Source: Bacillota bacterium
Lineage (GTDB): Bacteria > Bacillota > Clostridia > Oscillospirales > Acutalibacteraceae
Direction: 5' to 3'
Length of the DNA stretch: 64,000 nucleotides
Assembly: GCA_023458915.1 (NCBI GenBank)
Contig: JAEWWM010000050.1
Coordinates: 2,916-66,915 of the forward strand
The position numbers were made by a program, and so were the translations under genes. The notes beneath the pieces are model-generated. The model did no database searches. It was not told where the DNA came from and was given only the letters and a program-made list of their open reading frames with translations. This document shows, one piece after another, positions 37,619 through 40,961 of the stretch. The stretch's first letter is position 1. Each line of letters opens with the position of its first letter.

Positions 37619-37699
37619 TTATGCATATTTTGCAAATTCATCATCAATTATTTTTTCTATATTTTCATCTAATTTTTTTATGTATTCAATTTTCAGCAT
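37619..37699 (-). pseudogene. 26-codon stub resembling the N-terminus of a GNAT acetyltransferase
   Basis: MLKIEYIKKLDENIEKIIDDEFAKYA then stop. Overlaps the ANT(6) stop codon by 14 nt. Confidence 0.3.
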
Positions 37700-38555
37700 T
37701 AGATTTGCTCCTTAATATTTTCAAATATTTTGTTACACCGTTATCTTCACTTTGGTTGTAGGTGAAACTTAATTTTAAGGCAATCTCTTTAGCTAAAATT
37801 CTGAATAATTCACACGCTTTAAAAACAGCATTCCATAAATTTTCATAGTTGCTGTCTGAGTATGTTTTTTCATACATTTTGTAAAAATTTTCCGGCAAAA
37901 AATCTTTAAAGTATCTTCCAAATGTGCCTGTGGAAACTTTGAAATCGCTATGAAGCCCGATGTACCACTTAACCATTTTTTCAAGTTCCACATGGACGAT
38001 ATCAAACATTCGCATGGCATAAGTGAGTTCATCACGAACGATGCCTTTAGCAACATTTTGAAGGCACCACCAAAATTCATTTTGGCAAGCTTTAAATTTA
38101 TTTTTCGTAGGAGGATTTATCAGAAAATCGCTATCGCTGGATACTATATTCGAGAATTTATTATCTTTATCAAGCAGCACAACTGTTGCGCTATCAAGAT
38201 TTATTGTGTTTAGAAAGTCCATGGTTTCAAATGTCATATCCATCCTGAGTCCACTATTAAACAGCGTAAGGTACGCAAAATGCTGCTCAGGATTATGTGC
38301 ATTATCAAAAAGCTTAGGGTTATCGGGAGTTTGCAAAATGGCAACTTCGCCAAATTTCGCAGCAAATGCATCAAACCAATATTTGTCCAAATATGGCTTA
38401 TTTGAATGCGTAACAAATGCAATATCATAATCGCTCAATTTATCAATTTTTCCGTTTGGATTTGCCCGTGACCCTTCAAGCAACACTGCTCGTATATTTT
38501 CATCTGATTTTGCAAAATTTAAAACGATATTTAATATTTCATTCTTTTTATGCAT
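37686..38555 (-). CDS. aminoglycoside 6-nucleotidyltransferase, ANT(6)/AadK-like
   Basis: ILNIVLNFAKSDENIRAVLLEGSRANPN...DYDIAFVT matches the ANT(6) N-terminal nucleotidyltransferase pattern; length is typical at 289 aa. Confidence 0.75.
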   Translation of the reverse strand: MHKKNEILNIVLNFAKSDENIRAVLLEGSRANPNGKIDKLSDYDIAFVTHSNKPYLDKYWFDAFAAKFGEVAILQTPDNPKLFDNAHNPEQHFAYLTLFNSGLRMDMTFETMDFLNTINLDSATVVLLDKDNKFSNIVSSDSDFLINPPTKNKFKACQNEFWWCLQNVAKGIVRDELTYAMRMFDIVHVELEKMVKWYIGLHSDFKVSTGTFGRYFKDFLPENFYKMYEKTYSDSNYENLWNAVFKACELFRILAKEIALKLSFTYNQSEDNGVTKYLKILRSKSNAEN

Positions 38556-38787
38556 AAGAAGCGTCCACCTCTTTCTGCTGCTTAAAAATACATTTTACTA
38601 TTTATCCATTCGTTAAAAAGGGGAACAAGTGCATTACGGTGGTTATAATAGCAACTTCTTTTAACTATGCTATTATACCACACAATTTCTTTTTCGCTAA
38701 TTTAAGTTAGTGCATATGTTTGGCAAATTTTTATTTTTTAATTTGGAAAAAAGTCTAATAAAAAAATTTTTCAATTAAAATTGGGTG

Positions 38788-39228
38788 CTAAGCAAAATTA
38801 TTAGTATTAGATTGATTAGTAGGGCAAGTGTTATTAGAAATTCCGTTTTGAATTCTATTTAACCCTGCCTCACAGTCGCGAATTCCACTTTCAACATCTT
38901 CAATACCATCATTTATATTATTCCTGCATATTTCACAGCGTCCGCAATTGATATTTCTAAGGGCTTGTGTGCATTGTCTTAATCCGGCACAAATATTACG
39001 ATTTTGCATGCCTGAATTTTGCACTGCTGACCTGATACATGCTAGCCCTTGTGCACATACACAGTTACCGTTTGAGATTTCTGTTGTTCCTCTGCAGATG
39101 TTGTTATTGCGGACTTCATTTAATCCTTGAGTACACTGGCAAAGACCTTGAAGACAAATATTTATACCACGAGTAACCCTTCGATTAAAATTTAAAATAT
39201 TGTTCCCATTACATCTAGAATTACACAT
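38788..39228 (-). CDS. Cys/Asn-rich repeat protein (146 aa, 16 Cys), no family recognised
   Basis: Recurrent NIC-x-GL-x-QCTQ-(G/A)L units (ICLQGLCQCTQGL; VCAQGLACI; ICAGLRQCTQAL; CGRCEIC). AAAGGAG SD. No signal peptide. Confidence 0.65.
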   Translation of the reverse strand: MCNSRCNGNNILNFNRRVTRGINICLQGLCQCTQGLNEVRNNNICRGTTEISNGNCVCAQGLACIRSAVQNSGMQNRNICAGLRQCTQALRNINCGRCEICRNNINDGIEDVESGIRDCEAGLNRIQNGISNNTCPTNQSNTNNFA

Positions 39229-39269
39229 ATAAGCATCGACTCCTTTTTGAGCGAAGAAAAATTCTGTAA
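39199..39269 (-). repeat. inverted-repeat arm A: 5' leader, SD and first 10 codons of the Cys-rich gene
   Basis: About 85% identical (hand alignment: 61 matches, 8 mismatches, 3 gap positions) to 40106..40175 on the opposite strand. Confidence 0.8.
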
Positions 39270-39389
39270 GATTTCAATGTATTATATTCTTTTGCAGCTA
39301 TATATGTGATAAATTCAGCTTGTTTTATTAAAATATTCTAAATTAGTGCGAGTGGTCGGTAAGGGCACTAGGTAAAAATTATGGTGCTG

Positions 39390-40105: not shown

Positions 40106-40175
40106 TTATAGAATTTTTTCGCACAAAAAGGGGTCAATTCTTATTATGTGTAATTCTAAATGTAATGGAAACAAT
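40106..40175 (+). repeat. inverted-repeat arm B: 5' leader, SD and first 10 codons of the beta-lactamase-like gene
   Basis: Partner of 39199..39269. Both genes begin MCNS(R/K)CNGNN. Confidence 0.8.
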
Positions 40176-40961
40176 TTTATTCTACAAATTTTAATTTCAT
40201 TAATTTTAACTGTTTATATTTTTGCTTTAACGGGTTGTAAGACTTCATCTTCAAATGAAACAGAAGTAGATCTGTCAAGCTTTTTTAGCGAAAAAGAAGG
40301 TTGCGCTGTATTTTGTAAAGATAATCATTTTTATGTATACAAAAAAGATATGATTAACGTTCAGGAATCTCCATGTTCTACTTTTAAAATCTTTCTAACC
40401 TTGGCTGGCCTGAAGTTTGGCGTACTAAAAGACGAAAACACCATGATTAAGTGGGATGGCATAAAAAGAGATTTTGAATTTTGGAATAAAGATTTAACAT
40501 TAAAGGAAGCATTCAGTTTATCTGCTGGGTGGTGGTTTAGAAAAGTTGCAAATGATATAGGTAAAGAAAAATTATCTTATCTTGTAAATGAACTTTCTTA
40601 TGGTAATTGTGACACATCCGGAGAAATACCTTTTTGGGTAGATTCCTCGATCAAAATTTCGCCAAAAGAACAAGTTGAATTTATTAAAAAGATTTTTAAT
40701 TATGAACTGCATTCATTTTCCAGGGAGCATGTAGAAATATTAAAAACTGCTATGCAAAAAGGGATTATAAATGGCGGTAAGTTATATGGAAAAACCGGAA
40801 GCAGCAGCACCAACAAAAACGGTTGGTTTGTTGGTGCTTACGAAAAAGGCGGCAAATATCTGTTTTGTGCAGTTAGATTATTTAGTGGGCAAGAAATTTC
40901 TGGCTCTACCGCTGAAAAAATATTAAGAAATATTATTGAAATTAAATATTCACAAATATAA
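40146..40961 (+). CDS. class D (OXA-type) beta-lactamase-like lipoprotein
   Basis: STFK, SAG (at the SxV position), YGN, KTG and WFVG motifs in OXA order. WDG...W.KDLTL and QVEFIKK parallel OXA-10. Lipobox ALTGC. Confidence 0.8.
   Translation: MCNSKCNGNNFILQILISLILTVYIFALTGCKTSSSNETEVDLSSFFSEKEGCAVFCKDNHFYVYKKDMINVQESPCSTFKIFLTLAGLKFGVLKDENTMIKWDGIKRDFEFWNKDLTLKEAFSLSAGWWFRKVANDIGKEKLSYLVNELSYGNCDTSGEIPFWVDSSIKISPKEQVEFIKKIFNYELHSFSREHVEILKTAMQKGIINGGKLYGKTGSSSTNKNGWFVGAYEKGGKYLFCAVRLFSGQEISGSTAEKILRNIIEIKYSQI

Follow-up and report, generated by a model that had tools for sequence, protein, structure and literature searches.

The protein described here is most readily compared with the copper storage proteins Csp1 and Csp3 (DUF326, PF03860), which are small, very Cys-rich four-helix bundles whose cysteines point inward, each monomer taking up many Cu(I) ions, with Csp3 being cytosolic. 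The Csp proteins carry CxxxC/CxxC motifs, place Cys at both the a and the d heptad positions around an open core, and are Lys-rich, as in the copy encoded by the host genome studied here (KCIDACNKCAQAC...). A second comparison is offered by the self-assembling spore-envelope proteins CotY/CotZ/ExsY (spore coat and exosporium; mother-cell expression under sigma-E/K), CsxA, and CdeM/CdeC, which are ~150 aa long with ~10% Cys, lack a signal peptide, are lineage-specific in spore-forming hosts, and have terminal cysteines that could cross-link (PMC7333573). Unrelated Cys-rich proteins across spore formers have been proposed to self-assemble into cross-linked arrays (PMC7333573). Helical heptads with Gly at every seventh residue are known from the X-X-X-Leu-X-X-Gly repeats of the YhgE/Pip proteins, which are long, Cys-free, membrane-anchored, and extracellular, and idealized heptads with a stripe of small residues beside a Leu/Ile stripe are known from Alacoil (ROP-like) and de novo four-helix bundles.

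Within the window (the whole 64,000-nt stretch of DNA that was analyzed), an ORF at 38788..39228 on the minus strand encodes a Cys-rich, Lys-free protein of 146 aa, P0001, that shares features with each of these systems. Similar to Csp3, P0001 is small, very Cys-rich, cytoplasmic, and predicted to be a four-helix bundle with Cys pointing inward, and both are plausibly thiolate metal binders. In contrast to Csp, P0001 has Cys at d and not at a, carries many cysteines at exposed positions or on its tails, has Gly running along g, and contains no Lys. Homology to Csp/DUF326 was rejected. P0001 has no Pfam match at E ≤ 10, a PF03860 scan of the genome picked out a different gene on contig C29, a profile of the P0001 family compared with the product of that gene gave an hhalign probability of 0.07%, and no Csp was found among the top 50 Foldseek matches of P0001 in the PDB. 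This agrees with the first-pass annotation, which had judged the cysteine spacing to be unlike that of Csp/DUF326. The DUF326/Csp3-type gene itself (KCIDACNKCAQACMECMKMC..., ~9.70-9.83 kb of contig C29, corresponding to L045 1426-1734, minus strand) encodes a Cys-rich four-helix-bundle protein that is rich in Lys and has CxxxCxxC motifs and adjoins a cytochrome-P450-like 415-aa ORF.

P0001 resembles the spore proteins in its length, its proportion of Cys, the absence of a signal peptide, its lineage specificity, its terminal Cys, and the type of host, but differs from CotY/CotZ/ExsY in having neither sequence similarity nor a collagen-like partner gene. Homology to CotZ/ExsY (PF10612) was rejected because P0001 gave no match and the genome yielded none at E ≤ 1, the B. 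subtilis control being positive; no collagen-like-repeat protein was found in the host genome. The YhgE/Pip proteins share the Gly-every-seventh heptad, and an 800-aa protein of this type, P0011, was the weakest significant phmmer match (E = 8.6e-4), whereas P0001 is compact, four-helical, and cytoplasmic, with no transmembrane segment and no NCBIfam or Pfam match. With the Alacoil and de novo bundles P0001 has in common the small-residue stripe (Gly at g, Cys at d) beside Leu/Ile, a likeness of structural analogy alone, the best Foldseek matches being designed bundles with TM 0.57-0.62 and E of 0.015 or worse.

A selected gene for a Lys-free protein

Translation of the ORF and a hydropathy scan bear out the first-pass description of a 146-aa product with 16 Cys and no signal peptide, and the NCVC (residues 55-58) and CGRCEIC (95-101) motifs listed there are both present. 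The repeat NIC.(Q)GL.QCTQ(G/A)L, said to occur three times, is found in full twice (23-36 and 78-90), and it is the NIC triplet that recurs three times (23-25, 43-45, and 78-80). The cysteines (11% of the residues) are at positions 2, 6, 25, 30, 32, 45, 56, 58, 64, 80, 86, 95, 98, 101, 119, and 135. P0001 also contains 29 Asn, 14 Arg, and 2 Met, and has no Lys, His, Trp, or Tyr. Given the Cys frequency of 1.4% in the host genome, the probability of at least 16 Cys is ~4e-10, and given a Lys frequency of 9.0% (Arg 3.5%), the probability of no Lys is ~1e-6. The absence of Lys was not remarked on in the first-pass annotation. P0001 is the sole credible ORF of at least 120 aa without Lys across the 1.14-Mb genome, and, given that the genome is AT-rich, the almost complete exclusion of Lys stands out as a strong signal in the composition. 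A recent import from a GC-rich donor, as a reason for Arg over Lys, was rejected because the GC3 of the gene (0.25) is host-like. The highest 19-residue Kyte-Doolittle window reaches 0.88 and the N-terminus is not hydrophobic; no signal peptide or transmembrane segment was detected by the hydropathy scan, which places the thiols of P0001 in the reducing cytoplasm.

The coding sequence is under purifying selection, with dN/dS of 0.10 (dS 1.46) against the 75%-identical P0002 and of 0.20 (dS 0.32) for the closer family pair P0017/P0018, and the same protein is found on seven contigs from independent samples. A Shine-Dalgarno sequence read from the DNA, AAAGGAG (39240..39246, minus strand), lies 11 nt 5′ of the ATG and is kept as AAAGGGG 5′ of P0002 and of a bla-like gene in the window. 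Further upstream, 53-82 nt 5′ of the ATG, is a candidate promoter, ATCACA-18-TATAAT (39281..39310, minus strand), with 10 of 12 consensus matches and a phylogenetic footprint: both hexamer blocks are kept 5′ of P0002 (TTTATCACATATA... and GAATATGAT), although synonymous divergence is saturated. A 14-bp hairpin ~105 nt past the stop codon (38639..38682, minus strand), with no U-run directly after it and not called in the terminator scan, may be a weak terminator.

The P0001 ORF is a real, monocistronic, selected gene for a soluble cytoplasmic protein of ~15 kDa. That it is instead a chance or decaying ORF with no functional gene is extremely improbable, and is effectively refuted by the selection data (dN/dS 0.10-0.20) and by intact homologues in other contexts; the confident fold prediction and the kept 5′ signals also speak against it.

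Predicted fold and placement of the cysteines

An AF2 prediction of P0001 from a nine-sequence alignment (pLDDT 86.3, ~98 in the helices; pTM 0.78) yields helices at residues 6-40, 44-72, 77-101, and 105-131 and disordered tails at 1-5 and 132-146, with C2, C6, and C135 assigned to the tails. A second AF2 run, headed by the 35%-identical P0017 with an alignment that left out P0001-P0005, yields the same topology at pLDDT 87.2. The high-confidence prediction for P0001 is a four-helix bundle of up-down-up-down topology, and the helical bundle suggested in the first-pass annotation is recovered for both P0001 and a distant homologue. Foldseek against the PDB retrieved only four-helix bundles of a generic up-down kind, most of them designed proteins or ligand-binding domains of chemoreceptors (E ≥ 0.015, TM ~0.6).

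The helices of P0001 are built of near-ideal heptads with the pattern G-[IL]-x-x-[CIV]-x-x, in which Gly occupies g, Leu or Ile occupies a, and Cys, Ile, or Val occupies d. The g-position glycines are G21/28/35, G47/54/61, G82/(A89)/96, and G108/115/122/129 in the four helices, and the hairpin turns fall at invariant Asn (NN[IT]C.G). The two halves of the protein share 31% identity over 58 ungapped aa (E = 1e-4), indicating that the bundle arose via tandem duplication of a helix-NN-turn-helix hairpin.

Five cysteines (C25, C32, C58, C86, and C119) occupy core d positions and none occupies a; three are at flanking e and five at exposed b/c/f, while the N-tail carries two and the C-tail one. The earlier suggestion of a Cys-lined bundle is therefore upheld for these five of the 16 Cys and not for the rest, which are flanking, exposed, or on the tails, with a always being Leu or Ile. 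In an alignment of 16 family members, several of them close, so that conservation figures are coarse, Cys is found at C135 in 15, at C58 and C86 in 14, at C25 in 13, at C32 and C56 in 12, at C2 in 11, and at C119 in six. The CxC motif at 56/58 is kept in the alignment. No Cys is invariant among the 16, the invariant residues being N43, G47, G96, and G108, and several homologues have Ile, Leu, Val, or Phe in place of core Cys. Counting heptads and turns on the predicted fold, we infer that the cysteines extend over the whole length of the bundle, with C25/C58 and C86/C119 opposite each other at about mid-length.

We favor, tentatively and with considerable doubt, a reading in which P0001 acts through its thiols as a soft-metal-binding bundle. 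Ions of the Cu(I), Zn, or Cd type would be bound and so sequestered or buffered in the reducing cytoplasm. The d-position pairs C25/C58 and C86/C119, together with C32, would meet across tight Gly/Cys helix interfaces mid-bundle, while C30, C56, C64, C95, C98, and C101 could form a ladder along the bundle length. Both flexible tails, which come out at the same end of the bundle, bear conserved Cys that could capture ions and pass them inward. Such action would be like that of Csp3 or metallothionein, P0001 being homologous to neither, and the gene would be carried as accessory cargo beside resistance-type genes. The metal-binding reading is favored by the preference for Cys over other small residues at d on all four helices, by the location of the thiols in a reducing cytoplasm, and by the Cys-bearing tails coming together at one bundle end. 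It is weakened by the lack of any invariant Cys, the core cysteines being replaceable and C119 being Cys in only six of the 16 members. With Leu or Ile at all a positions, half of the core is aliphatic and there is no Csp-like open channel, which also counts against metal binding, as do the lack of His, the presence of just 2 Met, and the absence of metal-homeostasis neighbors from all family loci. In addition, a genuine DUF326/Csp3-type protein is already encoded elsewhere in the genome, and metal binding does not account for the exclusion of Lys. Should the ladder bind metal, it would represent a second, independently evolved soft-metal storage in a four-helix bundle, with a simple, design-like sequence useful for metalloprotein engineering, and one carried beside antibiotic-resistance-type genes in an uncultured gut Clostridium.

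The same cysteines could be read as a thiol redox switch or as an Fe-S or single-metal (Cys4) module, in which C25, C58, C86, and C119, as a single central site or as a pair of hairpin disulfides, would report or buffer the redox state. The duplication makes C25/C86 and C58/C119 equivalent, one per helix and at roughly equal heights in the bundle, and a cytoplasmic protein in anaerobic hosts would suit such a role. We nevertheless consider it quite improbable. Besides the low conservation of C119, C58 is missing from P0003 and P0004, neither a DNA-binding nor an output domain is present, partner genes are lacking, and the protein was counted as lacking a CxxC/CxxCxxC Fe-S motif, though CGRCEIC is present at 95-101. 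A single site would also leave the 9-20 Cys found per family protein unaccounted for.

It is possible, though we consider it doubtful, that the family represents a new class of thiol-laddered, Lys-excluding four-helix bundle, evolved independently of the Csp proteins and metallothioneins and serving as a new kind of cytosolic multi-metal store or buffer or as a new self-assembling, disulfide-tiled spore-surface protein. Either way, the exclusion of Lys would contribute to how the protein works, for instance in that reactive amines would be kept off the thiol/thiolate chemistry. The family to which P0001 belongs is new; its fold is a common one, its composition is unusual, and in function it is at most an analogue of known Cys-rich bundles.

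A rare family with a patchy distribution

P0001 retrieved no match, even at E ≤ 10, from Pfam, NCBIfam, PHROGs, or PDB sequences. An exhaustive phmmer search of 1.84 billion representatives returned nine proteins at E ≤ 1e-3, and a profile search of 5.8 billion proteins returned 12 clusters, all unnamed or 'hypothetical', one of which is from an Oscillospiraceae MAG. The homologue census thus produced a rare family of intact homologues and no match to a characterized family, consistent with the first-pass annotation, which had placed the protein in no known family. Among same-genus genomes, a credible copy was present in 0 of 35. An order-level survey of 401 genomes found clear relatives in just two others, G402 and G142 (as tandem copies in G142), and in a class-wide sample of 399 genomes the window's own genome alone scored. 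The distribution is extremely patchy and accessory-like, and P0001 is a member of a very rare, uncharacterized family of spore-forming gut Oscillospirales-type Clostridia.

Across the family, proteins are 135-165 aa long with 9-20 Cys, 0-4 Lys, and 10-20 Arg, statistics that rest on the same 16 sequences. Lys is nearly excluded and Arg is high in AT-rich and GC-richer hosts alike. Asn content ranges from 3 to 29 and tracks host AT content, so the Asn-richness of P0001 is no family trait. His numbers 0-2 per protein, and Trp is absent from the six members counted. The net charge ranges from -5 to +7, by which a polycation or nucleic-acid-binding role is ruled out.

The relatives in G402 and G142 are longer, Cys-poor proteins with an 'EGIRDIREG' heptad and an N-terminal CxxC-type motif, encoded on the minus strand at L020 745-1257 and 1441-2043 and at L021 790-1365 and 1474-1953. 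They matched no known family, and a related-locus search with one of them as the query returned no match. In one of the two genomes they occur as tandem paralogues; in the other, the relative adjoins a 170-aa protein, rich in Lys, Asp, and Glu and containing three C(N)VDIKVFC repeats, which is likewise of no known family.

In none of the family members examined did the neighborhood contain a conserved partner gene or a metal-homeostasis gene. A subfamily of 136-aa homologues occupies a fixed slot, hisS-aspS-[gene]-glyS. At four of these loci, an rSAM/SPASM and NHLP (nitrile-hydratase-leader) cassette lies between the 136-aa homologue and glyS (L009 8521-10095, L010 8483-11957, L036 4485-5898, and L037 2472-3476). 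Each cassette holds one to four NHLP precursors that share a conserved leader with GVAGG at its end; their cores diverge and lack Cys. L034 and L035 are without the cassette, indicating that it is an unrelated, independent insertion, and the window is without it as well. P0001 was rejected as an rSAM Cys-rich RiPP precursor (SCIFF, sactipeptide, or ranthipeptide), given that it has no NCBIfam match and is predicted to be a folded 146-aa bundle and that the rSAM cassette has its own precursors.

Accessory surroundings

In the host genome (1.14 Mb, 35% GC), the P0001 gene is set in an accessory patchwork. On one side is a homologue of ANT(6)-type aminoglycoside nucleotidyltransferases (37686-38555, minus strand), which reaches 204 bits where the cut-off is 420; on the other side is an orphan gene for a 212-aa secreted protein, followed by a gene for a class-D beta-lactamase/BlaR1-sensor-like lipoprotein (40146..40961, plus strand) with 167-181 bits, under curated cut-offs. 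Both are divergent relatives and not named resistance alleles. This travel with resistance-type genes, together with the patchy distribution and a 5′ module shared with a vegetative-type bla function, is a further ground on which the metal-binding reading is favored.

The same surroundings fit a different role, in which P0001 would be island cargo acting by protein-protein binding as an inhibitor, decoy, or immunity-type bundle. Cys would then serve mainly as a small apolar residue for tight (Alacoil-like) packing, and the exclusion of Lys would reflect the target or an avoided modification. The gene is found within a ~14-kb patchwork that includes the resistance-type genes, its distribution is very patchy, core Cys interchanges with Ile, Val, Leu, and Phe, and the relatives at L020 and L021 keep the same heptad while being Cys-poor. 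The best Foldseek matches, moreover, are designed binders and ligand-binding four-helix bundles. Set against this are the fixed housekeeping slot of the 136-aa subfamily, the strong preference for Cys over Ala or Ser at d along with the conserved tail Cys, which suggests that the thiols matter, and the lack of any match in PHROGs, phage genomes, or viral contigs. Overall, we regard a binding role as rather unlikely. A phage origin of P0001 was rejected on the absence of matches in PHROGs, by tblastn of 50,697 phage records, in IMG/VR, or by Foldseek against BFVD (no viral match at E ≤ 1e-3).

Sporulation and promoter motifs

The host encodes Spo0A (158 bits; Spo0A_C) and SpoIVA (400 bits) and so is taken to be an endospore former; G402 also encodes SpoIVA. 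As the main alternative to metal binding, P0001 could be considered as a Cys-rich structural tile of the spore coat or exosporium, made in the mother-cell cytoplasm without a signal peptide and self-assembling as a bundle, with the exposed and tail cysteines (C56, C135, and the N-terminal CxC) forming inter-subunit disulfides. It would be analogous, not homologous, to CotY/ExsY, CsxA, and CdeM. The most conserved Cys of the family, C135 (15 of 16), is on the disordered C-tail, and conservation extends to the N-terminal Cys and to C56, which is exposed at b; such tail and exposed cysteines would be needless for a purely internal metal site. Known Cys-rich spore proteins are likewise of this size and Cys content, have no signal peptide, are encoded monocistronically, diverge quickly, and are restricted to particular lineages, all of which P0001 fits. 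The P0002 gene lies between a YkwD-family gene and nth, and this upstream neighbor (spore_YkwD) is a partial ORF that scores under the cut-off. Were this reading correct, the unrelated Cys-rich builders of spore envelopes would be joined by a new family.

Promoter motifs were compared with sigma-K boxes as quoted in PMC3789822. The sequence CATATAAT, with AC 16 nt before it, is found 5′ of P0006 and P0016 and matches these boxes (PMC3789822). It also holds a perfect sigma-A TATAAT, so the motifs fit sigma-A and sigma-K alike and do not discriminate between them. Several observations argue against the spore tile: the P0001 gene is missing from the 35 other same-genus species, which would be unexpected of a structural part of the spore; it is located in an accessory island of the host genome; and, as given above, neither the protein nor the genome shows CotZ/CotY/ExsY similarity and the genome has no collagen-like-repeat partner. 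The gene's own box is ATCACA-18-TATAAT, and its 5′ module also heads the bla-like gene, suggesting vegetative expression. A metal-storing or metal-sensing bundle and a spore-coat-type protein had both been suggested in the first-pass annotation. We think it unlikely that P0001 is a spore tile, and the metal-binding bundle remains our preferred, if tentative, reading.

Copying of the 5′ module onto the bla-like gene

The 5′ ends of the P0001 gene and the bla-like gene form an inverted duplication whose two arms bracket the gene for the 212-aa secreted protein. In the left arm (39196..39265, minus strand) are the 5′ UTR, Shine-Dalgarno sequence, ATG, and first 11 codons of the Cys-rich gene (MCNSRCNGNNI); the right arm (40110..40178, plus strand) comprises the same 5′ module heading the bla-like gene (MCNSKCNGNNF...). 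The first 34 nt of the two genes form a 91% inverted repeat, and the likeness of the arms spans ~70 nt with small indels, covering a -10-like box, the UTR, the Shine-Dalgarno sequence, the ATG, and 11 codons encoding MCNS[RK]CNGNN. An invertible-DNA switch between the arms was rejected, since the orientation is the same in all six independent assemblies, and a regulatory RNA in the common 5′ UTR was rejected, there being no Rfam match and no folding above background.

The same 5′ region precedes P0002 (L018) in an unrelated context with no bla gene, indicating that the module originally belonged to the Cys-rich gene and that the bla-like gene acquired it by capture. That the bla-like gene took over the -10-like box, UTR, Shine-Dalgarno sequence, and 11 codons argues for vegetative (sigma-A-type) and not late mother-cell expression. 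This copying of an initiation module onto a bla-like gene is a clear example of 5′-module capture. Past a 5-nt indel, the two arms also have AAATTTTAAT in common, which in the bla-like gene is read in a different frame.
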